From an uncultured bacterium (GTDB lineage Bacteria; Krumholzibacteriota; Krumholzibacteriia; LZORAL124-64-63): a stretch of 64,000 bases of DNA. Position numbers and translations under genes: made by a program. The DNA lies in contig CAVYVY010000011.1 of the NCBI GenBank assembly GCA_963772145.1, positions 67,607-131,606 of the forward strand, given 5' to 3'. The notes beneath the pieces were generated by a model, which saw only the letters and a program-made list of their open reading frames with translations, ran no database searches and was not told the origin of the DNA. Shown in pieces: positions 10,643 through 40,852 of the stretch (the stretch's first letter is position 1; each line of letters starts with the position of its first letter).

Positions 10643-10971
10643 CGGAGGCTCCGGAGAACCCGGGGCGGTTCACGGCCTGACGAATTCTGCGCCGATCCTG
10701 ATTACCGTCAAGCGTGGGAGTCTGTTCGCAAGCGGCGTCATCGGTCCGCCACGGTCGTGTCCGCCATTGAATCCACCCACATACCGACCTATCATCGAAT
10801 CCGATCGGCCCCGCGGCCTCCGTTGAGTCGTCAGGATCTGCCCGCACAGGGACGGATGGGATTATTGGTAGGCAAGGGGAAACCCAGTCGGCAAGGAGAC
10901 TATGGCCAATCACATGGCCTGATGTGTCTCCTGGAGATACCAGGTCCTGCCCAAACCCAGGGGGGAACCAG

Positions 10972-13653: not shown

Positions 13654-13974
13654 ATGCCCCCCATGGGCCGTCTTGGCGACAAATCCCAGGCTCCGGCCGA
13701 CATGCACGGCTGTCCGGCCTGTCCGCATCCCGTCATCGGGCCGGCCATCGTCGGGTCGCCGAACGTGATGGTGAACAACCTGCCGGCGCTGCGGGTCGGG
13801 GACAAGGGGATCCACATGGTGTGCTGCGGACCGAACATGTGGACGGCGGTGAAGGGGAGCGCCACGGTGCTGATCAACAACCTGCCGGCGCATCGGATGG
13901 GTGATCAGGACCAGCATTGCGGCGGCCCCGGGACCCTCATCGAGGGCAGTCCGGACGTGATCGTCGGGGGCTGA
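13654..13974 (+). CDS. PAAR-domain spike-tip protein
   Basis: 106 aa from ATG 13654 (GGAGAGGA 7 nt upstream). Repeated P-A-x-R-x-GD motifs (LPALRVGD, LPAHRMGD) and the Cys/His pattern (HGCPACPHP, MVCCGP, HCGGPG) are typical of PAAR proteins. Confidence 0.85.
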   Translation: MPPMGRLGDKSQAPADMHGCPACPHPVIGPAIVGSPNVMVNNLPALRVGDKGIHMVCCGPNMWTAVKGSATVLINNLPAHRMGDQDQHCGGPGTLIEGSPDVIVGG

Positions 13975-13986
13975 GACGGGGGGGCC

Positions 13987-14817
13987 ATGCCGGCACCGAA
14001 TGCGCAGATGTTTTCCCAGCTCACCCGCACGAATTTCAGCGCGAAGGGCATTCGGATTCCGCTGGACTGGGCGCCGCCCGGCGAACAGTTCCCGGATGCG
14101 TTCGCGCCGTCGGAGCGGCAGGTCGCGCCGGGGTCGCCCACCGAGCTGTTCCATGCGGCCACCCTGAACCGGTACCACGTCGATGCGGCCGCCGGCATGA
14201 GCGACAGGCTCGGCACCTACATCGACGGGGTCTGCGGGGCGATCTGCGGCGCGATCGGCAACTGGATGCAGACCGCCATGGTCGCCGGGGCGCTCATCAA
14301 CGGGCCGGTCGGGACGCTGCTGCCGGGCGGGGTGGTGGGGCCTCCTCTGCTGCCGCTCATCCTGGGGCAGGCCCCGAAGACGACGCCGCTCGAGACGCAG
14401 TACTCGCTGGCGATCGCCAACGCGTTCAGCTCGGCCTGGCTGGCGTGGCAGACGGGGCTGACCGGGATGCTGACCTATCCCGCCTTCGCGGCGGTGCCGT
14501 CGCCGGTGGCGCCGCCGATGCCGAACGTGCCGATGCCGCTGGTGACCTTCCCGTCGGCCGGCGAGGCGATGCTCTCCCCCTCCACGCTGCAAAGCGCCAT
14601 GGTGGGGATGCTGGGCAATCCGACGGCGCAGCACGCGCCCGAGCTGTTCGACGCGCTGGCGCAGGCGTTCGGCATGGTGTTCCAGATGTTCAAGGCGACG
14701 ACCATCGTGCAGAATGTGCTCGGCACCGGGCCGGTGCCGACGTTTGCGCCGCCGTTCGTGCCGGTGGGGCCGGTGCTGGCCGGCACCGTCATCCCCACGC
14801 CCGGGGTGTTCGTGTGA
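13987..14817 (+). CDS. Hypothetical Gly/Pro/Ala-rich protein with a glycine-zipper-like hydrophobic core (possible PAAR-associated cargo)
   Basis: 276-aa ORF lying 12 nt after PAAR and 25 nt before the DUF2169 gene. It contains GVCGAICGAIGNWMQTAMVAGALINGPVGTLLPGGVVG. No family recognised. Confidence 0.5.
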   Translation: MPAPNAQMFSQLTRTNFSAKGIRIPLDWAPPGEQFPDAFAPSERQVAPGSPTELFHAATLNRYHVDAAAGMSDRLGTYIDGVCGAICGAIGNWMQTAMVAGALINGPVGTLLPGGVVGPPLLPLILGQAPKTTPLETQYSLAIANAFSSAWLAWQTGLTGMLTYPAFAAVPSPVAPPMPNVPMPLVTFPSAGEAMLSPSTLQSAMVGMLGNPTAQHAPELFDALAQAFGMVFQMFKATTIVQNVLGTGPVPTFAPPFVPVGPVLAGTVIPTPGVFV

Positions 14818-14842
14818 GCGACCGGCGGAGGGTCGCAGCGCC

Positions 14843-15964
14843 ATGAAGATCGTCAACGAGACGCCGTTCATCGCCGAGGCGCTGCCGTTTGTCTGGCCGG
14901 ACGGGCGGGCCGCGCTGACGGTCATCCTCAAGGGGACGTTCACGATCCGTCCGGATGAGCCGGCGGAGCCGGCGACCGAGCAGTTGCCGATCCTGTTCGC
15001 CGACGCGCCGCTCGACCCGGAGAACCCGGCGCTGGGCGCGCGGTTCGAGGCCGACGTCGTCCCGTTCAAGCCGCGCGCCGACATCGTGCTCGTGGGCCGG
15101 GCGCACGCGCCGCCGCACAAGCTGGCGCGGGCGCTCGACGCGTCGCTGCGCGTGGGCAAGGTGAAGAAGGTCGTGCGGGTGATCGGCGACCGGCACTGGA
15201 CCTGCGGCGGACGCCTGCTGCCGGCCGCGTTCTCGGCGGCGGAGCCGTTCAAGAGCATGGACCTGGTCTACGCGCGCGCCTTCGGCGGCATCGACCAGAA
15301 GGGGGGCGGCTACTGCCGCTACAACCCCATCGGCCGCGGCTACATGGCGAAGAAGAGCAAGAGCGCGGTCGACGGCACGCCGCTGCCGAACGTGGAAGAC
15401 CCGCGCCACCTGATCAAGGCGTGGAACAGCCGTCCGCGCCCGGTCGGCTTCGGCTTCTACGGCCGCGGCTGGCTGCCCCGCCTGCGCTACCTCGGCACCT
15501 ACGACGAGAAATGGCGCAAGGAGCGGGCGCCGGCGCCGCCGGAGGACTTCCGCTTCGAGTCGTACAACGGCGCGCATCCCGACCTGCAGGTGAAGGAATA
15601 CCTGCGCGGCGACGAGGACGTGGAGCTGGTCCACCTCACGCCGCAGCCGCGGCTGCGCTTTTTGCTGCCGGCCGTGACGCCGGTCTGCGCGGTGCTGCGG
15701 CACGGCGCGGCGGTCGAGCCGCCGCCCGCGCGCGCCGGGTCGTCCGGGGAGCCGCTCCCGCCCCCGGTCCCGCGCGAGGGCGAGGATCGGGTCGTCGACG
15801 AGCCGACGCCCGGTTCGACGGCCGGCGAGCGGGTCGCGCTGAATCTCGACACGCTCGTGTTCGTCCCCGAGGAGATGCGCTTCACCCAGGTCTGGCGGGG
15901 CGTCTTCCCGCTGGCCGACCCGTCGGCGCGCGAGGTGGCGGAGATCGGCGTCTGGCTGGCGTGA
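14843..15964 (+). CDS. DUF2169-family T6SS adaptor-like protein
   Basis: 373 aa from ATG 14843. The N-terminus MKIVNETPFIAEALPFVWPDGRAALTVILKGTF and later blocks (ARAFGGID, NPIGRGY, PVGFGFYGRGWLPR) match my recollection of DUF2169. The context (PAAR upstream, effector downstream) also fits. Confidence 0.7.
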   Translation: MKIVNETPFIAEALPFVWPDGRAALTVILKGTFTIRPDEPAEPATEQLPILFADAPLDPENPALGARFEADVVPFKPRADIVLVGRAHAPPHKLARALDASLRVGKVKKVVRVIGDRHWTCGGRLLPAAFSAAEPFKSMDLVYARAFGGIDQKGGGYCRYNPIGRGYMAKKSKSAVDGTPLPNVEDPRHLIKAWNSRPRPVGFGFYGRGWLPRLRYLGTYDEKWRKERAPAPPEDFRFESYNGAHPDLQVKEYLRGDEDVELVHLTPQPRLRFLLPAVTPVCAVLRHGAAVEPPPARAGSSGEPLPPPVPREGEDRVVDEPTPGSTAGERVALNLDTLVFVPEEMRFTQVWRGVFPLADPSAREVAEIGVWLA

Positions 15965-16000
15965 GCGCGCCGGCCCGTTCCCGCGACACGGAGCTGAGCG

Positions 16001-19000
16001 ATGGCGAACGAGGTCCACCTCATCGGTCAGAACGTCCTCAACCCGCCGCCCGCGGACCGCTGGTTCGTCGACTACCTGCCGCTCAACGGGGGCGACGAGC
16101 TCACCTACTACGTCGACGGCGAGAGCTACGCCACCGACCTGCACGCCGCCCTCACCGGCGCCACGCAGGAGATCTGCCTGACCGGCCTGCACTTCAGCGG
16201 CCACTTCCACCTCAAGCGGCCGGGCGGCTGCGACCCCCTGAAGCAGGACGACCCCGACACTCTGCAGGAGATCCTGGCGGCCCGCAGCAAGGCCGGCTGC
16301 GAGATCTATCTGCTGGTCAACCAGTTCTGGCCGGACGAAGGGGAGATCGCCGCCGACTACTGGCGCGCCTACCGGGACCTCGACAAGCTGCTCTGGAAGA
16401 TGCCGCACGCGATCGCGCGGCACGATCATGGCCTCGGGCGGGATTCCCGACTACCTGGAGAAGACGTTCGCCTTCTTCGAGTACCTCAGGCGACCACGGC
16501 AACGCGGCGAAGATCCACTGCTACACCGACATCCACCAGGGCTACATCTTCCACAGCAACCACCAGAAGACGATCATCGTGGACCGCAATATCGCCTTCT
16601 GGGGCGGCATCGACCTGACCGACATCGACGGCGACCGCTGGGACGCCGCCGCGCACGCGCCGGGCAACAAGCTGCGCAACTTCGACAAGCCGGAGCGCAA
16701 CTGGCACGACCTGCAGCATGCGGGCCGTCAAGCCGCAGGGCGCCAAGGTCGAGCGCCGTCGACTACGTCTACGCCAACTTCCTGGCGCGCTACAACCACG
16801 GCTACCTCTACACGCCGTGGCGCAACGGGCAGGGCGTGCTCGAGGCGAAGCGGGAGAGCAGCTTCCCCAAACTGTCGCCGCCCGGCGGCAAGACCGCGCG
16901 GGACTACGTGCCGAAGGAGTGCTGGTACTACCCGCGGCAGCGCGAGCGCTACCAGCAGCAGGGCGTGCTGGCCTGGCCGCTGGTGCAGGTGGTCCGCTCC
17001 ATGCCGGCCGGCGCCGGCGGCAACTACTCCCGCAACCAGCATCCGCTCTGGAACGAGCTGCGGGTCGAGGTGCAGCCCGACGCGGATTTCCCGCCGCAGT
17101 ACGTCAACCCTTCGTTCGAGCACTCCGCGCGCGACGCCTACCTCAAGGGGATCGCCGCCGCCGAGAAGTTCATCTACCTCGAGAACCAGTGGGTGGCCGA
17201 CGACAGGATCTGGGCCGCGCTGTTCGCCGCCGCCGAGAAGCACGGCGCCGAGGCCGACTTCCGGCTGCTCGTCGTCCTGCCCAAGAAATTCCTGGCGGCG
17301 GCCGGCTTCGGCAGCGAGCAGACGATCGACCTCAACCCGTACGTGGAGCGGCTGGCCCGCATCTTCAAGGACAAGGGACGGCCGGAGAACTTCGGCCTGT
17401 TCAGCATCCTGCAGCCGGCGGGGCACCAGGATCCGGTGCGCGAGCAGACGAAGGTGCCGGAGTGCGTCTGGGACTACACGTACGTGCACTCCAAGCTGCT
17501 GATCGTGGACGACTGCTGGGCGCTGCTCGGCTCGGCCAACGCCGGCGGCATCTCGCTGACCGGGCTGGGCACGACGAGCGAGCCGGACACGGAGCTGTCG
17601 GCCATCGTGCTCGACGAACGGGGCGACGGCTCCCTCGTCAAACAGCTGCGCAAGAAGCTCTGGGCCGAACACCTCGGACTCGCCGAGGCGGACGTGGCCG
17701 ACTACAAGACCGGCGCCGACCTGTTCCACACGCAGGCGAAGGGGCAGCCGTTCAACACGACGAGCGCGAAGCGCGTGCACTACAACCTGCTCTACTACCC
17801 CTCCTCCCCCAAGGCCGCGGCCGCGCCCAACAAGGGGGTGTGGCGGCACCTCAAGTGGGAGCAGATCCAGCACCAGGTGAAGGCGCGCGTGGCCGACCCC
17901 GACGCCATCCACCAGACCTACTACAACCTGAGCGGCCCGCTCACGGCCGTGCACATGCTGCTCGAGCGCGATCCGTCGCGGTACGAGAAGCTGGTGGACA
18001 ACCTCTACAAGACCGGCGTCGACAAGGCGTGCGACGTGCGGCTGCAGCTGCCCGACCCCCACCTGCACGACGTGCCGGTCCTGGTGCGGCCGCAGGAGCT
18101 GGTCGAGTTCGCCGTCGAGCCGGAGCACCCGATCCTCGAGGTCGACTGGATGGTCGGCGGCGCGCTCACCGACAGCGCCAACTGGGTGCTCGACTACCAG
18201 GGGGCGGTGTCCGAGACCACCGCCACGGTCTGCTCCAACGGCGACATGGTCCGCCACCTGAAGAAGATCGTCCCGTGCCAGGGCGGCGTGACGCATCTGA
18301 GCTGCGAGAGCTACGGCGAGCTGAAGGAGGCGCAGCGGGCGAGCGTGCTGTTCGGCACCGGCGCGCCGGCGAAACCGCACACGGTGTTCGGCGCGGTCAA
18401 GCTCGGCACGGCGCTGCTGCTGCAGCCGGACGAAGCTGCGGTCGAGCGCGACAAGGGCGTGGCCAACCGCGACCTGGGCGACCCGAAGTACTGGATCAGC
18501 CGCGTGACCGACAACCCGTGGCTGCAGCTCAGGCGCGACCGCGCCTACCCGCTCTACCCCGGCGTGCTGACCCCGTACGACGTGAAGCACATCCTGGGCG
18601 ACCGGATGTACGTGCGCCTGCTCCAGCCGCTCGAGTTCAAGTACGACGGCGACAAGATCACCGACGTGCGGATGAGCTTCTGGACCTGGGGCCGCCGCTC
18701 CACGCTCGAGGTGCCCGCCGCGCTGTTCGCCAAGCAGGTCTACGGCTTCTTCATCGGCTACTACACGAACGGCGCGCGGGCGAGTGCCGAGGAGAAGCTG
18801 ACGCTGCGCGCCAACCGGGTGCGGCTCAAGGCCGGCTGGCAGCGCGACTACGTGCACGACGATGTCGACGGCAGCAAGCTGACCGTGATCTGCCACGGCG
18901 GCGCGCTGCGGGTGGAGCTGGCGCGATGCGTCTGGTCGACGTGGGAGGTCGTGCAGACCGTCGACGTCGGCGCGGGGCAGTCGGTCACGCTGCAGATCGG

Positions 19001-19094
19001 CGAGGCGTCGAAGGTCAACGACCAGGACGACCGCGCGCGCATCACGGCGACGGCGGACGCAGAGTACTCGCTGGAGATGAAGAGCTGGACGTAG
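16001..19094 (+). CDS. Phospholipase D-superfamily T6SS effector (Tle5/PldA-like), dual HKD; reading frame broken by four +1 insertions at about 16427, 16488, 16717 and 16757
   Basis: HKD motif 1 is FHSNHQKTIIVDRNIAFWGGIDL (frame of track ORF 15421..17502). HKD motif 2 is YVHSKLLIVDDCWALLGSANAG (track ORF 16428..19094). The N-terminus MANEVHLIG... is in ORF 16001..16618. I joined the pieces by reading all three frames. The frame is continuous from about 16760 to the stop at 19094. Confidence 0.8.
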
Positions 19095-19146
19095 GCACGG
19101 GCCCGGCCCGGCCTGCGCCCGATCGCCCCGACGCCGGCGCCCCCGC

Positions 19147-19710
19147 CTACCGCATCCCCTCCAACGGCACCGCGGCCAGCGCCGCCTTCGCCGCCGCGTT
19201 CTCCGCGGCGAGCGAGCGGGCCAGCGCGTCGACGACCTTGCGGCATTGCGCTTCGGCGAGCAGCCACTCCAGGGCGCGTTCGCCGGTCGGCGCCGTCTGC
19301 ACGAGGACGAAGGCCCAGCGGTGCGGCAGCACGGACGTGTCCGGAAGTGCGCGCGCGAGGTTGTCCAGGATCGCCGTGCGCTCCTCGGACGAGATGGGCG
19401 CCCGGCGCAGGTTGCCAACCTCGTCATTCGCGTAATTGACGCCCCCGGACTGGTGCCGCTTGAACAGCGCGCCGTCGGGCGGCGCCGCCCCCTCGTACAG
19501 GACGACGCTCGCCACCGGCTTCTCCTGCGGACCCACATAGGTCAGCTTCGCCTGGATCGGCTCGCTGCGGGACCAGGCCCCCGGTTCGCGTTCCCCGCCC
19601 TCTCGCGTGCTCATCGTATCCCCTCCTCTGTGGCCGCAGCCGATCGCGAGTGCGGCCAGGATCGGCAGCGAGACCGCGATTCGCCAGGGTGTCATCCGAC
19701 GGTTTTCCAC
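19147..19710 (-). CDS. Lipoprotein, candidate periplasmic T6SS immunity protein
   Basis: The lipobox LAALAIGC follows a basic N-region (ENRRMTPWR). GGAG lies 6 nt before GTG 19710. It is the last gene of the vgrG-distal operon, immediately after the 256-aa unknown and convergent with the PLD gene. Confidence 0.55.
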   Translation of the reverse strand: MENRRMTPWRIAVSLPILAALAIGCGHRGGDTMSTREGGEREPGAWSRSEPIQAKLTYVGPQEKPVASVVLYEGAAPPDGALFKRHQSGGVNYANDEVGNLRRAPISSEERTAILDNLARALPDTSVLPHRWAFVLVQTAPTGERALEWLLAEAQCRKVVDALARSLAAENAAAKAALAAVPLEGMR

Positions 19711-19722
19711 AACTGGCTCCAA

Positions 19723-20493
19723 TCAGGGGACGAGGGCCGGCTTGACGAACCCGTCCGCGTCGTTGCGCGCCTTGTTGAAGAGCTTGAAGGCGTCGAGGAC
19801 GTTCTTGTCCGGCTCCGTCAGCTCCCCCACGTACTGCGAAATGCCCGGCCGCCCGTGCTTGTTGTCGTCATGGGTCTTCGTGAAGCGCCAGGCGATCCCC
19901 TCGTACCAGATCCCGTGGTCGAGACCCTTGCTGCAGAAGGCGAACACCTGGAAATCGAGCACGCAGGTCTTCCATCCATTCGGTTTGGCGGTCTTGTCGT
20001 AGAACCCCTTCACGCCGCCGTCGTTGTTCGGCTGATCCGTGATGCGACTGAGATGGACCGGCGCGTAGCGCAGCGTGTTGTGACTGCCTTCGTGATCGAC
20101 CGCCACGCTCGCGCGGCGTCCGTTGAGGTTCGCGAAGCTGATCTCGCCGACGGTCCAGCCCGGGCGGGCGGCATCGCCCGCCACCTCGGTCCCGTACGAG
20201 TCGTTGTACCAGGGGTGGGTCTCGTTCTTGAGGGCGTCGATGCTCATGCCCCGCGTCTTCGCGCCGGTGAGGCAGGTCGCGTCCTTCCAGTCGAACCCGG
20301 CCCCGGGGCCGTAGTATTCGGACGGCAGCAGCGGCGTGCCGTCGAGGAACCGGGCCACCGCCTGCACGAGCACGATCTTCTCGCCGAACGGCACGCGGGC
20401 CGAGCGCTGCGGGTCGTACTCGACCATGATCAGGTTGGGCGCACTGGTCGGGCTGATCGCGCGCCCGGACAGGACAGTGAAAGGCCCGCTCAT
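19723..20493 (-). CDS. Unknown 256-aa protein, candidate T6SS effector
   Basis: Its own ATG at 20493 is preceded by GGGGGAA and lies 11 nt after the stop of the upstream gene. The track merges it into ORF 19723..21180. No signal peptide (MSGPFTVLSGRAISP). No motif I can assign. Position: vgrG, LysM, LysM, this gene, lipoprotein. Confidence 0.55.
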   Translation of the reverse strand: MSGPFTVLSGRAISPTSAPNLIMVEYDPQRSARVPFGEKIVLVQAVARFLDGTPLLPSEYYGPGAGFDWKDATCLTGAKTRGMSIDALKNETHPWYNDSYGTEVAGDAARPGWTVGEISFANLNGRRASVAVDHEGSHNTLRYAPVHLSRITDQPNNDGGVKGFYDKTAKPNGWKTCVLDFQVFAFCSKGLDHGIWYEGIAWRFTKTHDDNKHGRPGISQYVGELTEPDKNVLDAFKLFNKARNDADGFVKPALVP

Positions 20494-20504
20494 GCCCGTT
20501 CCCC

Positions 20505-21180
20505 CTAGATCCCGTGCCGCTGCAGCAGGCGCGCGCGCAGGTCGTCCGTGATGGTGCCGGTTTCCGCGATGACCTCGAGCTTCTGGAACAGGACGATCGA
20601 GCGGGCCGTGCGCGGCCCGAGGACACCGTCCTCCCGGCCGGCCCGCAGGCCGAGGTTGTTCAGGCGGGCCTGGACCCCCGACACGCCGCGGTCCGGCGTG
20701 TCGTCGCCCATCGGGATTGAGGTGCCCGATGTCCAGCGCGACGAACACCTTGCCGACCTTGAGGGTCGCGGGATCGTGCAGCCGCGGCACCGGCGATTTC
20801 GTCTTGCCGTCGCCACCGCTCGAGCCGGAGCCGCGGGCCACGCCGGCGATCGTGTAGGCGTACGCCACGCCCGCGTTCGGCTTGCCCTTGTCGGCCTCGA
20901 TCACGATGGTCAGTTCGTCGCCCTTGCCCTTCGCCTTGAAGGCGTGCTTCGCGCCGTCGCCCGCCGTCACCGGGCGCTGCCGCACCGGCGGGATCCAGAC
21001 GAGGTCGCCGGCCTGCAGCAGGTTCGGTTTGCGCAGCTTGCGCAGGTCGGAATTCTTCGGATCGTTCCAGATCGTGCGCCAGTCCGCGAACCCGTAATCC
21101 TGGCACAGCTTGCGCAGCCACTCGCCCTGCGACGCCGGATGGTACCCGGGCGGGATGATCTTGCCACTCACCGGCACCAT
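20505..21180 (-). CDS. LysM-like plus PG_binding_1-like protein (paralog 2); +1 frameshift in a CCC run near 20714
   Basis: The N-terminus GEWLRKLCQDYGFADWRTIWNDPKNSDLRKLRKPNLLQAGDLVWIPP is LysM-like. After ...VALDIGHLN the reading continues in track ORF 20505..20816 as PMGDDTPDRGVSGVQARLNNLGLRAGREDGVLGPRTARSIVLFQ, the peptidoglycan-binding repeat pattern. Confidence 0.6.
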
Positions 21181-21214
21181 CCTCCTGTCGGCCGCCCGGT
21201 CCGGGCCCCGCCGC

Positions 21215-21880
21215 TCACGCGTCGTGCTCCGCGGCCAGCTTGTCGCACGTCTTCTGGTCCGGCTCGCCGGTCGCTTCGAGATCGCAGGCCCGCTGGAAAT
21301 CGGCGAGCGCGCTGCGCGTCGGCTCGTCCAGCTCGCCGGAGGCCGGGCAGGGATAGCCCAGGTTCTCGAGCCGCTGCTGGACGCCGGTGATCGAGGCGAC
21401 CGGGTCGAGCCCGCTCAGCCGCAGCTCGAATTTCTGCTGGTCTTTCTCGTCCTGCCCCACGGTCAGGGTGCCCCGCTGCGCGTTCGGCGGCACCGGCACT
21501 TCGACCACGCCGTCGCCATCGGTGCTGCCCTGGCTCAGCTTGCCGTCGATGTTGAGCGTGTACGGCTCGTTCTTGCGGGGCTCGCCGTCGCGCAAAATCC
21601 GCACCCGCAGCCGCGACGGCAGCCCCTTGCGGCGGAAGCGGTGCTTCTGCCCGTCGGCCGCCTGCTCCTGCCGGAGCCGCGGGTCGGGAACCTGCACGCG
21701 GTCGCCCGGCAGCAGCAGCGACGGGTCCTTGCGCTCCCGCTTGAGCTGCGCGTTGTCGGGGTGACTCCAGAGGGTGTCGGGCAGGAAGCCGTGCGCCAGC
21801 GCGATGCTCTCGATGCACTCGCCCCGCTTCACGACGTGATTTCCGCCGCCCACCGGTTTGGCCGCCGCCTGCTCCGCCAT
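21215..21880 (-). CDS. LysM-like plus PG_binding_1-like protein (paralog 1)
   Basis: 221 aa. HVVKRGECIESIALAHGFLPDTLWSHPDNAQLKRERKDPSLLLPGDRVQVP is LysM-like, and ITGVQQRLENLGYPCPASGELDEPTRSALADFQ is PG-binding-like. Its ATG directly abuts the vgrG stop (TAGATG). Confidence 0.65.
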   Translation of the reverse strand: MAEQAAAKPVGGGNHVVKRGECIESIALAHGFLPDTLWSHPDNAQLKRERKDPSLLLPGDRVQVPDPRLRQEQAADGQKHRFRRKGLPSRLRVRILRDGEPRKNEPYTLNIDGKLSQGSTDGDGVVEVPVPPNAQRGTLTVGQDEKDQQKFELRLSGLDPVASITGVQQRLENLGYPCPASGELDEPTRSALADFQRACDLEATGEPDQKTCDKLAAEHDA

Positions 21881-24200: not shown

Positions 24201-24222
24201 GGCGGCTCCTGTCGCTCGATCG

Positions 24223-26928: not shown

Positions 26929-26960
26929 GGGTCTCCTCCTCGCATCCGAATTCTTTGCGC

Positions 26961-28018
26961 TCAGGCCGCGGCGCCCTTCGGCGCCTGCGCGTCGATGAGG
27001 ACCTCCGCCGGCGCGTCCCGCGTCTGGGCCGTGAGCAGCCAGGTGGACCAGCCGAGCCACGGCGCGCCGTGCTCGTCGGCCACCCCCAGCCGCAGGCAGG
27101 GCACGGCCTCCGGGCGCAGCACGAGCTGCAGGTCGAAGTCGCAGCTCCGCGCCCGCGCCGAGCCGGACCATCTCGACCAGCGGCCGGAAGCCTCCGCCGG
27201 ACGGCAGGAGCTCCTGGAACGCCGGCCAGTCGAGCGGACCGAGCGCGCAGCCGGAAGCGCGCCTGCGCCACCTGGACCCGGCCGCCGAGCGTCAGGTCGC
27301 AGCCGAGCTGATGCGCGTGCCGGCCGAGCCGGCTCTGCTCCTCCTCCCCGATGACGTACCATTCGGGGACGAACTGTTCGACCGCGACCGGCACGCCGAA
27401 GTAGCCCTCCAGCAGATCCGTCAACGCCACGGCCGACACCCGGCCGCGCCGGAAGGCCGACGCCCGCGCCAGCAACAGGCGCGCGTCGAACGGCAGATCG
27501 CGCCACCGGGTCGGCGCGCCGAGCCCCAGCAGCGAGAGCAGGGCGCGCTCGAACACGCCCGGCCCGGCGTCGTCGCCCCGTTCGTAGGCGATCGGGAAGT
27601 GGTACTTGGCCCAGGCGCGGTAGAACAGCGAGATCAGGCGGTGGTTGAACAGATCGAGAAAGTCGCGCAGCGCCGTGTCGCGTTCCCGCAGACGGGAGAG
27701 CACGTACTCCGTATAGACCGTCGGCAGGCTGCCGAAACTGGCCGGGGTGGCCACGCCCATGAACGCCACGGTGAGCCGTGCCGGCCCTTCGGCGGTCGGG
27801 CGGGTCACCTCCCTGACGTCGCTGGGCGCAAACGCCAGCGAGACGTCGGAGGCGAAGCGGATCGCCTCGCGGCGCGGGTCGTCCCCTTCGCCGACCGGGA
27901 CGGACTCCGGAGCCGCCAGTTGCAGCAGTCGCACCGCCTGGAAGAACTCGAAGCGGTACCCGTGCGCGAACAGCAGTTCGCTCAGGTCAGCGTGATCTGT
28001 CCGGCGCGAGGCGGCCAC
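26961..28018 (-). CDS. tssG: T6SS baseplate protein TssG; two +1 insertions at about 27241 and 27141
   Basis: [10 protein letters not shown]...IRF....LAF and the later [16 protein letters not shown] are TssG hallmarks. By hand translation the reading RFRLRA|[33 protein letters not shown]|[19 protein letters not shown] crosses three frames. Confidence 0.8.
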
Positions 28019-29890
28019 CGCTTCATCACCCCTTCCTGCTGGCGCCCGACGGCCACCGTCTGGGTGAACGAGTTCACCGTCGTGTAGAGCCCGAAGAAAC
28101 GCTCCAGGACGGACGCGAAGAGGAACGCGCTGCTGCCGGCGTACCTGGTCTCGTCGAACTCCAGCGTGACCTCCAGGCCACGCACGAACAGGCGGCCGCC
28201 GCCGGTCGCCACGCGCCGCAGGGCGCGCTGCGCGCGCACGCCGACCAGGCCGGCGATGCGCTTGCGCGTCGCCTCGGAGTTGACGAAATCGAGCAGGGAG
28301 AGCAGTTCGCGCAGCGCGACCGGGTCGGCAGCGGGCGTCGCGGCCGGGGCGGCGTCCCCCTCCGCCGCCGCGTCCGCCATCGCCAGACCGGGCAGCGAGA
28401 GATGGTTCAGCTGCAGCAGCGACACCAGGCGCCAGTGCCCCTCGCGCTGCAGCGGCAGGCGCAGGGAGGGGGTCGGCTTGCGCAGCGCGCGGACGCGCGT
28501 CACGCCGGGCTGGCCCTCGATCTGGAAATCGCCCCGCGCGTCGCCCATCAGCAGGCCCGCCGGCACGTCGCGATTGCTGCAGACGGCGCGGACGAGCAGG
28601 GTCTCGGTCGGCAGCTCCTGCAGGGGACGCCCGTTGCGGTCCACCAGCATCAGGAAGAGGTCCGTGCCCGGATCGCCTTCCCGCGGCGACGGGCGCCGCG
28701 TGGCGGACCAGAAGGCCGGCTCACGACCGCGCGGATCACCGTGGCGAAGCGAGTAGAACGGCCGGTAGTTCTTGACCCCGCCGGTCCCGGGCTCCACGGA
28801 CTCCACCTCCCGCACGGCGATCACCTCGTAGGCGGCGGCAGCGTGCAGGTCGGGCAGGACCGCGTACTCCGACACGGCGTGCGTCAGACGGATCGGCTCG
28901 GCCTGATGGAGGAACAGGTTGACGGCGGGCGCGCAGCCGAGCCGCAGGCTCTCGGGGCCGAGCGCGCTGGCCAGGGCGAGCGGCGGCTGATCGAGCAGGA
29001 CCAGGAGCTCGAGGTCCGGCCCGCAGCCGGCGAGCACGTCCGGAGTGAGGCCGACCACGTCGACGAACAGGAATTTCTCGGGGAAGCAGAAGTAGTCCTG
29101 CAGCAGGCCGTAGCCGAGCTGCGAAGCGGGCGTGCTTTCCAGCAGCATCTCGTCCGGGCCGAAGCCGACCGGCTGCAACCGGTCGGGCGGCAGGAACCGG
29201 CCCGCCACGCGACGCCCGGCCGGCGTGGCCGGCGCGCCGGGCGCCTGGCCGTTCTGCACCAGCACACCCAGGGGGGAACGGAACAGCAGGCCGTAGAGCT
29301 GGTGTGCGATGTCGGACGGACCGTCCACGAAGAAGCGCAGGGAATCCAGCGGCAGCTGGGCGAAATTCTGCGCGCCGACCGTCCGCAACCGGATACGGAT
29401 CGCTCCCGCCGCCTCGGCAGGGGCGCCGGGATGACCGCGATCCAGGGCCAGAACGTCCACTCCGGCCACCTCGATCGGCCAGAGCGTGACCGGATAGCTC
29501 GTGCGGAACTTGCAGCGCACGCCGCCGACGGGACGGGTGTGCAGCAGGGAGTGGCGCGGCACCCGGATGCCGGTCGTCGCCTCGGCGCGGCTGGCGTCGG
29601 GCGTGAACTGCACGATGGTGAGCGACGGCACCGGGCGCCAGCAGCTGCGGGTAGAGCGCGCCGAGGAAGGCGTTGGTGATCTCGGGGAACTCGTCGTCCA
29701 GGCGCAGCTGCACGCGCGCCGTCAGCACCGCGAACGCCTCGATCAGGCGCTCGACGTGCGGATCCTCGCACCGGTCCGGCTCCAGGAGGAGCTGGCTGGC
29801 GATGCCGGGGTGCTTGGCGGCGAACTCCGCGGCCTGCCGCCGGATGAAGCGCAGTTCCCGTTCGTAGTACTGCAGCAGCTCGTCGGACAT
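27982..29890 (-). CDS. tssF: T6SS baseplate protein TssF; +1 frameshift near 29642
   Basis: The N-terminus MSDELLQYYERELRFIRRQAAEFAAKHPGIASQLLL...DPHVERLIEAFAVLTARVQLRLDDEFPEIT is classic TssF. After ...YPQLLAP it continues as VPSLTIVQFTP... in track ORF 27982..29631. Its ATG overlaps the tssE stop (ATGA). Confidence 0.85.
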
Positions 29891-30372
29891 CAATCCCCCG
29901 TCGTGACCTGGACCGCTCCGCTGGCCGTTTCGACGCTCGTGTCGAAGGAGATCGGCTCGCGCACCGGATCGACGTTGAGCAGTGCGTGGATGTTGAAGTG
30001 GAGACGCACGTGGGTGTCCTCGCGCGTGGTCACGTGCGCCACCTTGATGGAGCGCGGCAGCAGCCGGGGCTCGAACGTGCGCAGCGCCTCTTCGATCAGC
30101 GTGCAGATGCGCTGGCAATCCGTCGGGTTGCCGGAAAAGAGCGTCAGATCGGCCAGGCCGTAGGCGAGAATGGAGGTGCGCGCCTCGGGCAGGTCCGTCA
30201 GATCCAACAACGGCCGGCGCGAATTGAGCAGCCACTCGATGTCACGTCGCACCGACTGCTTCAGCTCCTCCACGCCGATGCGCAGATCGCGACGCCGACT
30301 GCCGCCCCCGATCGGCGCCAGCCGGTCGAGCACGGAGTGCCGCAAAATGTCTCCGGGTCGCGAATCCGACAT
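29890..30372 (-). CDS. tssE: T6SS baseplate protein TssE (gp25-like)
   Basis: 160 aa. SVRRDIEWLLNSRR...ILAYGL.D and FEPRL are GPW/gp25-family features. The position between tagJ and tssF also fits. Confidence 0.85.
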   Translation of the reverse strand: MSDSRPGDILRHSVLDRLAPIGGGSRRRDLRIGVEELKQSVRRDIEWLLNSRRPLLDLTDLPEARTSILAYGLADLTLFSGNPTDCQRICTLIEEALRTFEPRLLPRSIKVAHVTTREDTHVRLHFNIHALLNVDPVREPISFDTSVETASGAVQVTTGD

Positions 30373-30399
30373 CGCCGTCCCCCACGCCGTCGCCCGGCG

Positions 30400-31215
30400 C
30401 TAGGCGGCCGGGCCGAATTCCAGTGAGCGCACCGCGAGCAGGCCCGTTTCGCGCTCTTCCCCGTCACGACCCGCGCAGGCCAGCAGCCGCTGGCCCAGGC
30501 CGCGGTAGAACGGACCTTCGTCCTGCCAGTCGGTCTGCCGTCCCAGGCGGAGCTGTTCGTCGGGCGCCGCGGCCGACCCGGCGTAGAGCGCGGGCAGATG
30601 CACCGCGGCCGTCTCCCCGTCGCTCCCCTCCAGGCGGGCCGGCAGCCAGAGCAGGTCCAGCAGATGCCCCGGCTCATCGATCGTCAGCCGGCGGATCCGC
30701 TCGAACGGCAGCCAGAGGTAGCGACCGCCCGCGAAGACCTCGAGCACGGAGCCGAGCAGATCGTCCAGATCCCGCAGCCCCGCGAACTCGCGGCCGTCGA
30801 GCCGCCCGACCAGCGCGGGCTGCGCGGCGACCGCCGCCTCGAGGCGCCGGCCGGCCTCGACCGCGTCGCCGCCACGCCAGGCGATCAGAGCCGCCTGCCG
30901 CGCCACCGCGTGCGCCGGCGCGTCGGGGGGAAGCAGCGGCGCCTCCTCCCCGGCGAAGACCGCCACCCGGCGGCGTTCCGCCGCCAGCAGTCCGCCGTAG
31001 ACCCCCGCCGACGTGGTCAACTGGGGGTCCTGGTGGACCAGAACGTCAAGCTGGCGAGCGGCGCGGTCCCACTCGCCAGCGAAACAGAGCAGACCGAACA
31101 GCAGGTAACGGCCCCCCGCGTCGAGCGGCTGTGCCTTGACCATCGCCTGCTGCGCCGCGACCGCCTCGGCGAGGCGACCGGCCTGCAGCAGCGTCCGGGC
31201 GTCGGTCCCCGCCAT
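30400..31215 (-). CDS. tagJ: T6SS accessory protein TagJ (ImpE family)
   Basis: About 271 aa. It is collinear in pattern with P. aeruginosa TagJ1 as I recall it (LLQAGRLAEAV...; FAGGRYLWLPFERIRRLTIDEP..LLDLLWLPA; GLGQRLLA). It occupies the same slot between hcp and tssE. Confidence 0.7.
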   Translation of the reverse strand: MAGTDARTLLQAGRLAEAVAAQQAMVKAQPLDAGGRYLLFGLLCFAGEWDRAARQLDVLVHQDPQLTTSAGVYGGLLAAERRRVAVFAGEEAPLLPPDAPAHAVARQAALIAWRGGDAVEAGRRLEAAVAAQPALVGRLDGREFAGLRDLDDLLGSVLEVFAGGRYLWLPFERIRRLTIDEPGHLLDLLWLPARLEGSDGETAAVHLPALYAGSAAAPDEQLRLGRQTDWQDEGPFYRGLGQRLLACAGRDGEERETGLLAVRSLEFGPAA

Positions 31216-31238
31216 CACTCACCGCCTCGTTGCCGCCC

Positions 31239-31727
31239 CTACTTGGTGGCGTTGGTCTGCAGGTTCCAGGAGCCGGCCGTGTTGCCGCCGCCGCCGCCGC
31301 CCTCGCGCTTCTGGATCGTGTACTTCCACTCGATCTTGCCGTAGTTGAAGGCGACGGTCTCGATCGGCAGGCCCTGGCCCGACCCGCCCACGGCGACGCT
31401 CGAAATGATGGCGTTGGTCAGCTTGTACTCCATGTACTGCACCTGCCCGCCCCCGGTGGAGCGGCAGAGCGTGAGCAGGATCTCCTTCAGGTGCGTCCCC
31501 TCGCTGCACTTCTGGGCCAGGATGGGCGACGCCTTGTCGAGCTCCTTGCTGATCGTGAAATCGCCGTGCTCGCAGCGACCCACCGAGGCGCCGCCCGCGG
31601 TGCTGACCGCGGCGGCCGCCGGCTGGCTGACCCCGTGCGAGAACGACAGGACCTCGATCCAGTCCTTGAAATTGGTCGCGGTGCTCTCCCCAGGGATGCC
31701 GTCGATCTTCAGATACGCATCGGTCAT
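31239..31727 (-). CDS. hcp: T6SS tube protein Hcp (TssD)
   Basis: 162 aa from ATG 31727: MTDAYLKIDGIPGESTATNFKDWIEVLSFSHGVSQP...DFTISKELDKASPILAQKC..G...KEILLTLCR...QYMEYKLTNAIISSV. Confidence 0.9.
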   Translation of the reverse strand: MTDAYLKIDGIPGESTATNFKDWIEVLSFSHGVSQPAAAAVSTAGGASVGRCEHGDFTISKELDKASPILAQKCSEGTHLKEILLTLCRSTGGGQVQYMEYKLTNAIISSVAVGGSGQGLPIETVAFNYGKIEWKYTIQKREGGGGGGNTAGSWNLQTNATK

Positions 31728-31814
31728 GACGTTACGTCCTTTCGGCACGGCGGGCGCCCCTGTGACACCTCGCCCCCTCCATTACCGTGGACGGCGGGCC
31801 CGGCCCGCCGTCCC

Positions 31815-33311
31815 TTACTTCGCCGCCGCGGGCAGGTCCGCCACCAGCCGCAGCGAAACGTTCAGCTCCTCGAGCTGGAAATGCGGCCGCAGGTGCGCCA
31901 CGGCCCGGTAGCAGCCGGGCCGCGCCTTGTCCTCGACCACCTCGATGTTCGCCTCGCGCAGCGGGAACTTGGCCTTCTGCTCCTGCGTGGCGTCGTCCTG
32001 GTCGAGCACGTAGTGGCTGATCCAGTTGTTCAGGAACGTCTGCACCTGCGAACGCGACGCGAAGGCGCCGATCTTGTCCCGGCAGATCGCCTTCAGGTAG
32101 TGCGCGATGCGCGAGGTGGCCATCAGATACGGCAGGCGCCGCGACAGGTCCGAGTTGGCCGAGGCCGCCGCGTCCTGGTAGGTCTTGGGCCGCTGCGCGG
32201 TGTAGCCGCTGAAGAACGCCGCATAGTCGGTGTTCTTGCAGTTGACCAGGCCGATGAAGCCGAGGTCGGACAGCTCCTTGTCGCGCGTGTCGGGGATGAG
32301 CACCTCGGTCGGGCACTTGCTGCCGACGTCGCCCTCGCGCGTCTTGAAGACGTGGATCGGCAGCCCCTCGACCAGGCCGCCGCCCTCCGGTCCGCGGATC
32401 GCCACGCACCAGTGGTGACGGGAGAACGCCTCGGTCATGCGCCCCGCCATGGCGTAGGACGCATTGCTCCACAGGTACTTGTCATGCTCGGCCCCGTCCA
32501 CGTCCTCCTCGAAGTCGAAGGCGTCCACCGGCGTCGTGGCGCGCCCGTAGGGGAGGCGCGCGAGCGTGTGGGGCAGGGTCAGCGCCACGAAGCGGGCGTC
32601 CTCGGAGTCACGGAACGACAGCCACTTCGTGTTGTCGGGATTGCTCTTGTCGAAGATCTTGGCCAGGTCGCGCGGGTCGGGCAGCTGGGAGTAGCTCTCC
32701 AGGCCGAACATCTCCGCGCCGGCCGCCGAGATGAACGGCGCGTGCGCCGCGGCGGCGACGTGCGAGACGTTCTCCAGCAGCTCCATGTCCTGCGGACCCT
32801 TGCCGAACTCGTAGTCCCCCACGAGCAGGCCGTACGGGTCGCCGCCGTAGAGGCCGAACTCGTACTCGTAGACCTTCTTCCAGAGCGCGCTCTCGGTGAA
32901 TTCGGGCGCCGCCTGGAAGTCCCGCAGCAGGTCCTTCTTCGAGATGTTCAGCACCCGGATCTTGAGGGTCTCGCCGGTCTCGCTCTTGTGCACCATCTGG
33001 TGCAGCCCGCGCCACGACGCCTCGAGCTTCTGGAACGGCTCGGCGTGGATGATCTCGTTGAGCTGGCTGGAGATCAGCGCGTCGATGGCGGCGATGCGCT
33101 GGTTGACCGTCCGGCTGACCCCCTTGGCCACGACCGTGCCGGGATCGAGGAGCTGGCCGACGAGCGTCTTGATGAGCTGCTCGCCGTACTCCCGCGCGGT
33201 CTCGTCGCGCGGCTTGATGCCGGTGGCGAGGATCTCCTTCAGGACGTCCGCGCCGTCGAGCTGGACCAGCTCTTTGGTCGGAATCGGCTTCGATTTCCTG
33301 GACTCGGCCAT
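31815..33311 (-). CDS. tssC: T6SS contractile sheath large subunit TssC
   Basis: Intact 498-aa ORF. EASWRGLHQMV, PYGLLVGDYEF, APFISAAGAEMFG, LTLPHTLARLPYG and HWCVAIRGPEGGG are characteristic TssC/VipB blocks. Confidence 0.95.
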   Translation of the reverse strand: MAESRKSKPIPTKELVQLDGADVLKEILATGIKPRDETAREYGEQLIKTLVGQLLDPGTVVAKGVSRTVNQRIAAIDALISSQLNEIIHAEPFQKLEASWRGLHQMVHKSETGETLKIRVLNISKKDLLRDFQAAPEFTESALWKKVYEYEFGLYGGDPYGLLVGDYEFGKGPQDMELLENVSHVAAAAHAPFISAAGAEMFGLESYSQLPDPRDLAKIFDKSNPDNTKWLSFRDSEDARFVALTLPHTLARLPYGRATTPVDAFDFEEDVDGAEHDKYLWSNASYAMAGRMTEAFSRHHWCVAIRGPEGGGLVEGLPIHVFKTREGDVGSKCPTEVLIPDTRDKELSDLGFIGLVNCKNTDYAAFFSGYTAQRPKTYQDAAASANSDLSRRLPYLMATSRIAHYLKAICRDKIGAFASRSQVQTFLNNWISHYVLDQDDATQEQKAKFPLREANIEVVEDKARPGCYRAVAHLRPHFQLEELNVSLRLVADLPAAAK

Positions 33312-33312
33312 G

Positions 33313-33843
33313 TTACTTCGCCTCCCCGTCGCCGGCGTCGCCCGGCTGCCCGACGTCCAGCGCGCCCCGGAGCTTCTCGCGCAGTTCCTTGTTGTCCATG
33401 ATCGTCTCGAGCAGCTCCTCGAGCCGGTCGTTCCCCTCGGTCTTGCTCAACAGCGCCTTGAGCTGCGTGCGAATCTCGAGCAGATCGTTGAGCGGCTTCA
33501 CCTGCCGCACGACGTTCTCGGGCTGGAAGTCCGCCATCTTCTCGAAGTTCAGCTCCACCGACAGCTCACTGCCGTCGTCCGCCAGCTGATTCGGGACCTT
33601 GTAGGCGAGCCGCGGCTGCATGCTCTTGAGGACCGAATCGAAGTTGTCGGGATCGACATCGACGAACTTGCGATCCTTCGGCTTGGCCAGCGGGGTTTTC
33701 GGCTGCCCGGACAGGTCGGACATCACCCCCACGACGAAGGGCAGTTCCTTCATCGTCGGCACGCCGTTGAGCTCCACCTCGTAGGAGATGTGCACGCGCG
33801 GCGGCCGCACCCGCTCCTTCTTCTTGTAGATGCTCTCACCCAT
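33313..33843 (-). CDS. tssB: T6SS contractile sheath small subunit TssB
   Basis: Intact 176-aa ORF with GGGAGGAA upstream. RVHISYEVELNG..KELPFVVGVMSDLSG...FVDVDPDNFD is the TssB/VipA pattern. Confidence 0.95.
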   Translation of the reverse strand: MGESIYKKKERVRPPRVHISYEVELNGVPTMKELPFVVGVMSDLSGQPKTPLAKPKDRKFVDVDPDNFDSVLKSMQPRLAYKVPNQLADDGSELSVELNFEKMADFQPENVVRQVKPLNDLLEIRTQLKALLSKTEGNDRLEELLETIMDNKELREKLRGALDVGQPGDAGDGEAK

Positions 33844-33858
33844 CTTGGTTCCTCCCTC

Positions 33859-34932
33859 TCAGGCGTCTCCGGGTGGCTGCAGGCCCAGCAGGTCCTGCAC
33901 CTGACCCCGCACGTCCTCGTTCTTGACGAAATCCCTGAACAGCGACTCGAACGGCAGATCTCCCCACTTGACGGCGCGCTCGATCAGCAGCGCGACCGGG
34001 CTGTGCGGCTCGGTGCGACGCAGGAACTCGGCCACGACGCGCAACTGCCGGTAGGCCTGCTCGCGCGTGGCGATCGGGCCCGCGGCGCCCCCGCCCGCCG
34101 CCAGCGACGCCCCGGGCAACGCCCCGACCGTCGCCGCGGCCACGGCCCCGTCGTCCGGCTGCTCGCCGCCGCCGACCTGGTCCAGCTGCGCCTGGCACGC
34201 CTCGAGCAGATTGCGCAGGTCGAGCAGATGCGGCGCCTCGGGTCCGAACTTCGACTCGCAGGCATCGCCGAGAGCCGTCAGTTCGGCGGCGCAGGCCGCG
34301 ATCGCCTCACGCAGCGCCGCCAGCCGGGCGGGCGGCGTCCGGCCCAGCGCCGTGCGCCACTGCTCGCCGGTGATCAGGCCGGCGTCGATCAGCTCCTGGT
34401 ACTGCTGGCGGTCGGACCGCCGCCCCGCCTCTTCGACCCGGCGCGACTGCTCGAAGTCGAACAGGCTGCGCGGCGCGTCCCCCGGCGCTCCGGCCAGGGG
34501 GATCTGCCGGACCGCGGTCAGGAAGTCGCGCGAGGCGCCGAGCCAGGCCAGCGGCCGGGCCCGGATCGCCAGATCGATCCCCTCCTCATCGCACCCCGGA
34601 TAGAGGGCGTCCCAGTAGCGGTCGATCAGTTCGCGGATCAGCTTCAGGCCGGCGGCCAGCCCCGGAAACCCCTCCGTGCGCGCCAGCGCCAGGGTCAGCG
34701 TGGCGGCGAGCTCCAGGTCCTTGCTCCGCTCGCGCAGGGCGGCGCCGCACTCCCGCAGCACGGCCGGCCAGTCGGCGTTGCGGCCCTGCCCCTCGGGATC
34801 GGTCGTCGCGTCGACTTCCCGGCGCAGCTCCGCGAGGCGGCGGAAGGTGGTGTCGCCCGCGATCAGGCGCAGATCGACGCCGGTCGGACGCTCGGCAGAG
34901 ATGGGCTGAAGAAAACTCTCGATATCGACCAT
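33859..34932 (-). CDS. tssA: T6SS protein TssA (ImpA N-terminal domain family)
   Basis: From ATG 34932: MVDIESFLQPISAERPTGVDLRLIAGDTTFRRLAELRRE is the ImpA_N signature. It is the first gene of the structural operon. Confidence 0.8.
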   Translation of the reverse strand: MVDIESFLQPISAERPTGVDLRLIAGDTTFRRLAELRREVDATTDPEGQGRNADWPAVLRECGAALRERSKDLELAATLTLALARTEGFPGLAAGLKLIRELIDRYWDALYPGCDEEGIDLAIRARPLAWLGASRDFLTAVRQIPLAGAPGDAPRSLFDFEQSRRVEEAGRRSDRQQYQELIDAGLITGEQWRTALGRTPPARLAALREAIAACAAELTALGDACESKFGPEAPHLLDLRNLLEACQAQLDQVGGGEQPDDGAVAAATVGALPGASLAAGGGAAGPIATREQAYRQLRVVAEFLRRTEPHSPVALLIERAVKWGDLPFESLFRDFVKNEDVRGQVQDLLGLQPPGDA

Positions 34933-35155
34933 GGCGGAACGGCCGGACCCTGCCGTGCACCTTTTCCCTGACGCGGTCGGCGAAGCACAAACCGCGACGT
35001 GGCGCTCGGACAACCCGCCGGCACCCCCCTTGTGCCGCTGAGCTTAGCCGCCTCGATACCTCGAGTCAACACGCGGCTTGGGGCCGCAAGGGAGCCGCCG
35101 GATCACGCCGGGCGGCCTTGTGCAACCACCGCGTCTGCCCTATCCTCCCCCGTCC

Positions 35156-37616: not shown

Positions 37617-37809
37617 ACCTGGATATATACCTGATTATGCCCGATTGTCCACCCAAATAATCACCGGATTGTACCTGAATGCGCGATTTTCACCCAAGCC
37701 ACCCGCTGGATGCTGGTGGGCGCCCGCAACGTCGCGAGGTGCGTCGTTCACTGGCCGGACTCGATACCGTAACGGCGGCAGGCTTCGTCCAGTTTGATCT
37801 GATGAGTCG

Positions 37810-40653: not shown

Positions 40654-40852
40654 AATCACTCCACCGAGAGGTCGGCACCATACCCCGGCAGTCTTCGGCT
40701 CCGGCCGGTCGGCTGATCGCGTTTCTGAGCGCGTTCTCTCGTGCCCGGGTCGGACGGTCGGGGTCTTTTTCATGTGCGGGGACTTGCGCGCAAATCCAAG
40801 CGCAAGGCCAAAGAGGTGCGCGCCCACGCCGCACGCCGCTCCGTACAGGCTA

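Follow-up and report, generated by a model that had tools for sequence, protein, structure and literature searches.

In the H1 type VI secretion system (H1-T6SS) of Pseudomonas aeruginosa, the right-hand operon has the order tssA1-tssB1-tssC1-hcp1-tagJ1-tssE1-tssF1-tssG1-clpV1-vgrG1, which we take to be PA0082-PA0091. ClpV, TssA and TagJ characterise a T6SS that is anchored in the cell and reloaded, as opposed to a free injection particle. Here, we analyzed a 64-kb stretch of contig CAVYVY010000011.1 from an uncultured bacterium (hereafter the window), whose minus strand, read from 34932 down to 21881, carries the gene order tssA-tssB-tssC-hcp-tagJ-tssE-tssF-tssG-clpV-vgrG according to Pfam. 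The presence of ClpV, TssA and TagJ counts for a cell-anchored T6SS. A preliminary description of this locus had offered three options for the lack of membrane complex genes: a split locus, a different way of anchoring, or a decaying remnant. We favor the first, as relatives of the same clade carry cognate tssJKLM genes at variable positions. It is very probable that the window contains the contractile half of an ordinary split T6SS-i, that the anchor module is located elsewhere in the genome, and that the frameshifts in several genes are sequence errors.

An H1-like contractile operon

Genes were called by third-position GC content (GC3) with a frame-aware Viterbi path, and every supported frame was scanned against Pfam; the GC content of the window is ~70%, which makes most of the long open reading frames (ORFs) spurious. 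The start and stop codons of intact genes were checked. The first gene, tssA (33859-34932, minus strand as for all genes of the operon), encodes an intact, short TssA1-like protein of 357 amino acids (aa) that matched ImpA_N (1.5e-31) and the TssA structures 6hs5/6h8f in the PDB. It is followed by the intact genes for the two sheath subunits, tssB (33313-33843, 176 aa; T6SS_VipA, 3.5e-56), whose product is 98% identical to that of the related locus L001, and tssC (31815-33311, 498 aa; VipB, 2e-126, and VipB_2, 2.5e-43). Hcp, the tube protein (31239-31727, 162 aa; T6SS_HCP, 6.6e-46), the ImpE/HsiE1-like accessory protein TagJ (30400-31215, 271 aa; ImpE, 4e-36; PDB HsiE1 4uqy, 2.4e-40) and the gp25-like baseplate protein TssE (29890-30372, 160 aa; GPW_gp25, 4e-20) are intact as well.

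The remaining four genes carry insertions that are only present in the window. In tssF (27982-29893; T6SS_TssF, E = 6e-154), a single 1-nucleotide (nt) insertion at ~29636 shifts the frame between profile positions 1-86 and 84-607, so that an 86-residue N-terminal piece is separated. Two such insertions, at ~27244 and ~27141, distribute the T6SS_TssG match of tssG (26930-28018) over two frames. The clpV (tssH) gene (24223-26928) has many 1-nt insertions, and its domains (AAA_lid_9, AAA_2 and ClpB_D2-small) are scattered over at least four frame pieces. Finally, vgrG (tssI; 21881-24200), with one insertion at ~23591, matched Phage_GPD, Phage_base_V and Gp5_trimer_C in two frames. Once these insertions are taken out and the frames restored, the TssE/F/G baseplate is complete.

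The features of T6SS-i found in the window are a VipA/VipB-type sheath, Hcp, VgrG, PAAR, TssE/F/G, TssA and ClpV. Those of the H1-like subgroup are also present, namely a short TssA (357 aa) with ImpA_N as its only domain, and a tagJ gene placed between hcp and tssE. Among solved structures, TssC scored best against 9n4v (582 bits) and second best against P. aeruginosa TssC1 (5n8n, 472 bits); scores against the Myxococcus and Vibrio sheath structures were lower than that for TssC1, and Francisella IglB reached only 240 bits. Because of these TssC scores and the match of TagJ to HsiE1, the system is assigned by its sequences to the TagJ-containing, H1-like T6SS-i.

The closest public TssC (P0001) is 98% identical to that of the window. 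Relatives with 66-98% TssC identity came from metagenome-assembled genomes (MAGs) labelled Krumholzibacteriota/Krumholzibacteriia, Gemmatimonadota, Myxococcota, "Spirochaetales", "Fibrobacteraceae" or unclassified bacteria, and the order tssA-B-C-hcp-tagJ-E-F-G-clpV-vgrG was the same in all. In a neighbour-joining tree of TssC, which was built without T6SS-iii and T6SS-iv references (their exclusion rests on similarity and gene content), the window fell inside a monophyletic clade (L001-L020, L074-L080). Its sister is a cluster of a Planctomycetota MAG (L019/L155; JBCCGH010000007.1), which is complete and H1-like: fha-tssJ-tssK-tssL-tssM-tagF, an inverted tssA, and then tssB-tssC-hcp-tagJ onward. 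Identity to the TssC of proteobacterial and acidobacterial T6SS-i was 45-57%. No member of the clade was found on a plasmid; the best plasmid TssC proteins (Granulicella, Azospirillum and Gemmatirosa) were 56-58% identical. The taxonomic labels of three loci (L008, L011 and L012) are inconsistent, since GTDB/ENA gives 'uncultured Fibrobacteraceae' and NCBI gives Krumholzibacteriia/Krumholzibacteriota for near-identical proteins.

Upstream, the operon faces a gene for a MATE efflux transporter (35156-36640, plus strand; MatE, 2.8e-53), which is a neighbour outside the T6SS. The two ATG codons are at 34932 (tssA, minus strand) and 35156 (MATE, plus strand), leaving a divergent intergenic region of exactly 223 nt (34933-35155) that is presumed to contain the promoters. 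The same divergent arrangement of MATE and tssA was observed in L001 and L134. The preliminary description had reported this 223-nt spacing, which the start codons bear out, as well as a gene order like that of the right-hand H1-T6SS operon, with which both the TagJ match (2.4e-40) and the rank of TssC1 among solved structures are consistent. Its left border, 13654, coincides with the start codon (ATG) of a PAAR gene (Pfam PAAR_motif), and the observation was correct in every detail. No Rfam match was obtained in the window at gathering thresholds.

The tssJKLM module in the window and in relatives

As had been stated before, TssJ, TssK, TssL and TssM are not encoded within the 64 kb. Pfam searches of all ORFs with coding-type GC3 in the window detected none of T6SS_VasE, DotU, IcmF-related, T6SS-SciN, T6SS Fha and TagF. 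In addition, six-frame tblastn of the window for TssJ/K/L/M, Fha and TagF returned nothing better than an E-value of 0.03, and this best match sits within a SNF2 helicase gene. The queries were TssK, TssL and TssM of the Granulicella plasmid locus (L007), Fha, TssJ, TssK, TssL, TssM and TagF from each of L153, L154 and L155, and TssK, TssL, TssM, TssJ and two FHA-domain proteins of the clade-specific locus L158, with six TssK queries in all. The divergent fha-tssJ-tssK-tssL-tssM operon that lies next to tssA in H1-T6SS is not there, its place being taken by the MATE gene.

Several relatives do carry the module, with tssK being present in L018 and L156-L159. The first, L018, is nested inside the TssC clade in the neighbour-joining tree, and contains tssJ (SciN match in Pfam) and the first 68 codons of tssK, which runs off the contig end; the genes for a PpkA-like kinase and a lipoprotein, together with tssA, diverge from these two. 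Among the matches listed, the TssK most similar to this fragment was P0342, with 51% identity over 68 residues. When P0342 was searched exhaustively with phmmer against 1.84 billion cluster representatives, a distinct TssK clade emerged, comprising P0374 (83% identity), P0375-P0379 (41-48%) and the fragment P0384 (45%); every TssK outside this clade was at most 33% identical to P0342.

In three contigs with a P0342-type TssK (L157-L159), tssJKLM is located 0-8 kb downstream of a vgrG gene. The order is vgrG-tssK-tssL-tssM-tssJ-x-FHA-VWA/FHA-PP2C in L158 and vgrG-(VipA/VipB fusion)-tssJ-tssK-tssL-tssM in L159, while L157, a 736-kb MAG contig with 71% GC, shows vgrG-DUF6484-DUF2169-Tox-PAAR-immunity genes-HEAT-tssJ-tssK-tssL-tssM and, farther on, a kinase gene. 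Among the loci compared, the vgrG genes of these contigs were closest to each other and to those of the window's clade (best or near-best matches), and those of L158 and L159 shared 43-50% identity with vgrG of L001, L008 and the window. Between the kinases of L157 and L018, identity was 36%. Across these relatives, the module is found directly after vgrG, after an effector island, or divergent from tssA, and phosphorylation-type genes accompany it: a PpkA-like kinase in L018 and L157, and FHA and PP2C in L158. By analogy, such genes suggest an H1-T6SS-like post-translational control in the relatives.

Judging from these sequences, the TssC clade is equipped with its own canonical TssJ/K/L/M module together with phosphorylation-pathway genes, the position of which is labile. 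We infer that the module is likewise encoded elsewhere in the genome of the window and that the system would be functional. In this lineage, the module should be separated from vgrG by >21 kb and from tssA by >29 kb, unless a different contig carries it; by analogy with the relatives, the genes for Fha, the PP2C phosphatase and the PpkA-like kinase probably belong to the module.

Some observations in the relatives stand apart from the position of the module. Extra VipA/VipB-like genes, including one for a 467-aa VipA-VipB fusion, were found beside tssJKLM and separate from the main tssBC (L159, 1056-2459; L153, 1173-3947; L154, 750-3880). The L158 TssJ (7093-7974) has 293 aa, about twice the usual size, with a SciN domain only in residues 175-263, and its N-terminal half resembles another gene of L157 (15058-15417). 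A HEAT-repeat gene lies on the opposite strand after vgrG in L002/L010 (21456-21497), which belong to the 4.7-Mb Krumholzibacteriota-like genome JADJQR01, and a similar gene is located just before tssJKLM in L157 (6707-7918). By the same analogy, the module of JADJQR01 may be ~2-3 kb beyond the compared stretch.

Nature of the frameshifts and rival explanations

The frameshifts in tssF, tssG, clpV and vgrG that were noted previously are present in the window sequence, as seen in both the frame path and the alignment. We compared the window in a three-way alignment with two relatives in which these genes are intact. One of them (L001/L009) is a 433,921-bp MAG contig (CAVSZB010000005.1), the source of P0001, and its orthologues are all intact, with tssF of 632 aa, tssG of 351 aa, clpV of 887 aa (with Clp_N) and vgrG of 772 aa. 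Its DNA identity to the window is ~90%, and it therefore comes from a related species. In the other (L008, 96% TssC identity), the genes align as single matches without interruption. Between 23591 and 29636, the window has 30 insertions of its own (28 of them of 1-2 nt) versus 2 deletions, and the two references are mutually gap-free at every such position. About 20 of the single-base insertions fall inside clpV 25045-25620 (~580 nt), together with only one deletion; the second deletion, at 24714, is just outside this dense stretch. The insertion density there is far above that of the remainder of the aligned 15 kb, and the sequence looks like that of unpolished long reads. The possibility that the gaps at 25034-25620 represent alignment noise in a divergent region was rejected, as the references are gap-free relative to each other and the extra bases all belong to the window.

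After removal of the insertions, none of the ten genes contained a premature stop, and the ratios of nonsynonymous to synonymous substitution rates (dN/dS) were 0.04-0.33. The broken genes (tssF 0.20, tssG 0.25, clpV 0.26, vgrG 0.25) did not differ from the intact ones (tssA 0.20, hcp 0.33, tagJ 0.27, tssE 0.32). Frame breaks were not limited to the T6SS operon. The essential gene ispD is split, with profile positions 2-88 and 93-220 falling into different frames, as are pepF and a HAMP-SpoIIE gene (three frames each), an MFS gene and a gene for a phospholipase D (PLD)-like protein. The frame changes among the genes for the corrinoid protein, methyltransferase and MttB at 5.8-9.7 kb probably mark ordinary gene boundaries and were left out of the frameshift count. 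In the long-read MAG contig L157, tssK, tssL and tssM were called as short fragments only, which we regard as breaks of this kind too.

On these sequence comparisons, the frameshifts in tssF, tssG, clpV, vgrG and the PLD gene are attributed to insertions made in sequencing or assembly. Indels that are mostly insertions, form partial clusters and reach an essential gene are typical of a long-read assembly with poor polishing. We reject decay because the indels are confined to the window, dominated by insertions and also strike the essential ispD, and because the reading frames are clean and under purifying selection once the insertions are removed. The decaying remnant proposed earlier is thereby contradicted.

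Several points weigh against a split system with an intact operon. One is the extreme crowding of insertions in clpV 25045-25620. The module was found neither for the genome of the window, whose sequence extends 21 kb past vgrG and 29 kb past tssA, nor for its genus. In ~14 distinct clade loci, compared over ~8 kb upstream of tssA and only a few hundred bases past vgrG, none of tssK, tssL and tssM was present in the upstream part, in which the neighbours vary from genome to genome. No single contig holds both halves in full, and the link between the P0342-type TssK clade and the clade of the window rests on the vgrG identity of 43-50% and one short contig (L018). A search with TssM of the sister cluster yielded mostly Planctomycetota proteins at ~30% identity and none on a known clade contig, two of the matches being situated in ordinary complete clusters; the corresponding TssK search gave no match on a known clade contig either. 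However, both searches were word-prefiltered and the clade TssK is only ~27% identical to the query, which means that this negative result carries little weight.

Among the other explanations, it is unlikely that the frameshifts are real strain-specific mutations, which would make the organism a recent T6SS-null strain of a lineage with a working split system. The clustering of at least 12 frame changes in tssF-vgrG, with none in tssA-tssE, would fit such an event. On the other hand, ~20 insertions versus a single deletion in 580 nt of clpV would be an implausible mutational pattern, comparable breaks occur in ispD, pepF and the SpoIIE gene, and the tssK, tssL and tssM genes of the long-read L157 MAG are fragmented too.

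A second and distinctly improbable explanation is that the genus has lost tssK and the remainder of tssJKLM, with the tssA-vgrG operon being a non-firing orphan on its way to decay. Both the lack of the module in 64 kb and the frameshifted genes could be read in this manner. Nevertheless, two related genomes with ~90% DNA identity carry the operon in intact form, all ten genes show low dN/dS and no premature stop after insertion removal, and the indels extend to ispD. Bacterial gene decay is usually described as deletion-biased, and the 30:2 excess of insertions over deletions is the reverse of this bias.

Least credible of all is a different and unrecognised envelope anchor (membrane-complex-free or T6SS-iii-like) in a genome truly devoid of TssJ/K/L/M: it is favoured by the two PG_binding_1 proteins encoded after vgrG and by the lack of the module in the window as well as in ~8 kb upstream of tssA in the ~14 clade loci, but L018 has tssJ-tssK next to tssA within the clade, a clade-specific TssJ/K/L/M set adjoins vgrG genes of the clade type, the sister cluster is complete, neither a signal peptide nor a transmembrane segment is apparent by eye in the PG-binding proteins, and no gene is conserved beside the operon across the clade. 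The different anchoring suggested in the preliminary description found no positive evidence, and was weakened by the clade-specific TssJ/K/L/M of the relatives. We also consider it very improbable that the genus of the window combines a genome-wide lack of TssK/J/L/M and a novel envelope anchor with an intact tssA-vgrG operon under purifying selection; if this were true, the PG-binding proteins after vgrG could take part in anchoring.

Effector island, neighbouring genes and comparison with known systems

An operon on the plus strand, starting at 13654, is convergent with the T6SS operon and consists of genes for a PAAR spike-tip protein, a 276-aa protein, a DUF2169 protein and the PLD-like protein. 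The PAAR protein (13654-13974, 106 aa) matched PAAR_motif at 2.6e-19. The 276-aa protein (13987-14817) has no Pfam match, and its gene has a GC3 of 0.94. The DUF2169 protein (14843-15964; DUF2169, 1.5e-89) is 35% identical to the one encoded in the vgrG island of L157; proteins of this family serve as adaptors or chaperones for T6SS effectors. The last gene encodes a phospholipase D-like effector of ~1030 aa (16001-19094) with PLDc motif matches in two frame pieces. Two HKD (HxKxxxxD) motifs can be read in its sequence, and we infer a Tle5-like effector. Its two frameshifts are at ~16426-16490 and ~16719.

The genes between this operon and vgrG are on the minus strand. A 182-aa lipoprotein (19147-19695), in which a signal peptide and an AIGC lipobox can be read from the sequence, has no match in Pfam and is a possible candidate for an immunity protein. 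It is preceded by a gene for a 260-aa protein (19723-20505) with coding-type GC3 and no Pfam match, for which an effector role would be a guess from position only. Directly after vgrG, there is a gene for a 221-aa protein with a C-terminal PG_binding_1 domain (21215-21880; 2e-11), a putative cargo or accessory protein whose gene is also present after vgrG in L001. A paralogue follows in tandem (20505-21216; PG_binding_1, 7.9e-07 in the frame piece 20508-20900), with one frameshift between ~20717 and ~20900 according to the GC3 frame path. The N-termini of the two paralogues appear LysM-like by eye only, with no LysM match in Pfam.

Given the established biology of T6SS-i, from which the following steps are deduced, VgrG-PAAR would be loaded with the PLD-like lipase, and possibly with the PG-binding proteins, via the DUF2169 adaptor. 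The loaded spike would then nucleate a TssEFG-TssK baseplate docked on a TssJLM envelope complex, and TssA would prime polymerisation of Hcp and TssBC, with the TssBC sheath surrounding the Hcp tube. Contraction of the sheath would fire the spike and effectors into a neighbouring cell, after which ClpV, helped by TagJ, may disassemble and recycle the sheath.

The window contains additional genes outside the T6SS. A FlgD_ig-like C-terminal domain ends three large proteins (2-2389, 10771-13401 and 51747-54194), one of which has CARDB repeats and one 13 RCC1 repeats; one lies in a stretch of lower GC content (0.61) at 9.7-14 kb that the GC3 model called non-coding. The same domain occurs on a trypsin-like protein in L001, and it may represent a lineage-specific sorting or surface domain. 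Genes of toxin-antitoxin or defence type around the T6SS (36570-42122 and 4691-5569) include a Fic/DOC gene with a helix-turn-helix domain and those for a 1015-aa SNF2 helicase, a HipA N-terminal domain protein and an AbiEii-like nucleotidyltransferase. A corrinoid-dependent methyltransferase cluster (5814-9677) comprises B12-binding and homocysteine S-methyltransferase domains, a Met_synt_B12-like piece and an MttB-family methyltransferase. In the MFS gene (minus strand), the two halves of MFS_1 (profile positions 2-150 and 152-290) are in the same frame with an in-frame stop between them at 45565-45567, and a further frame change is found near 45100.

Full-text literature searches returned no paper on type VI secretion in Krumholzibacteriota, and literature searches returned nothing relevant for Gemmatimonadota. 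The present results point to an H1-like T6SS-i clade that is spread over MAGs of Krumholzibacteriota, Gemmatimonadota and Myxococcota. Systems of this kind would be missed or wrongly scored by detection schemes that require the full set of core genes at a single locus, as tssJKLM moves relative to the sheath operon and TssK is divergent (at most 33% identical to other TssK clusters). Moreover, insertion-rich stretches in long-read MAG assemblies can mimic pseudogenisation. The accepted view of how a T6SS works is left unchanged by these findings.

Compared with H1-T6SS of P. aeruginosa, the window has the same ten genes in identical order and a short, ImpA_N-only TssA, and its TagJ and TssC resemble HsiE1 (4uqy, 2.4e-40) and TssC1 (5n8n, 472 bits). 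The Fha, PP2C and PpkA-like genes of the relatives are likewise as in the H1 phosphorylation pathway. Unlike H1-T6SS, tssA does not face a divergent fha-tssJ-tssK-tssL-tssM operon and the host is a Krumholzibacteriota-like bacterium with 70% GC. In the relatives, the module follows vgrG (L157-L159) or, in L018, diverges from tssA and a kinase gene. The Planctomycetota cluster (L019/L155) shares the order tssB-tssC-hcp-tagJ-tssE-tssF-tssG-clpV-vgrG with the window, with 59% identity for TssC and 64% for ClpV, but it has fha-tssJ-tssK-tssL-tssM-tagF immediately upstream and an inverted tssA. Another T6SS-i with tagJ outside Proteobacteria is encoded on plasmid pACIX901 of Granulicella tundricola (NC_015057.1; TssC 56%), in which, in contrast to the window, two tssK genes, tssL, tssM and a PP2C gene are beside tssB, and tssA comes after tagJ.

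With the T6SS-iii of Bacteroidota and extracellular contractile injection systems, the window has in common that no TssJ/L/M gene is located beside the sheath genes. Families of the Afp/PVC type (phage-type sheath, tape measure, tail fibres and Afp15-type ATPase), the systems of which lack ClpV and TssA, did not appear in the general Pfam scans of the window. Bacteroidota T6SS-iii is marked by the membrane proteins TssN, TssO, TssP, TssQ and TssR, which replace TssJLM, and by the absence of TssA; the latter does not apply to this locus, in which TssA is encoded. In contrast to T6SS-iii and membrane-free systems, the window has a VipA/VipB sheath, TssA, TagJ and ClpV, and its relatives, unlike membrane-free systems, carry canonical TssJ/K/L/M.

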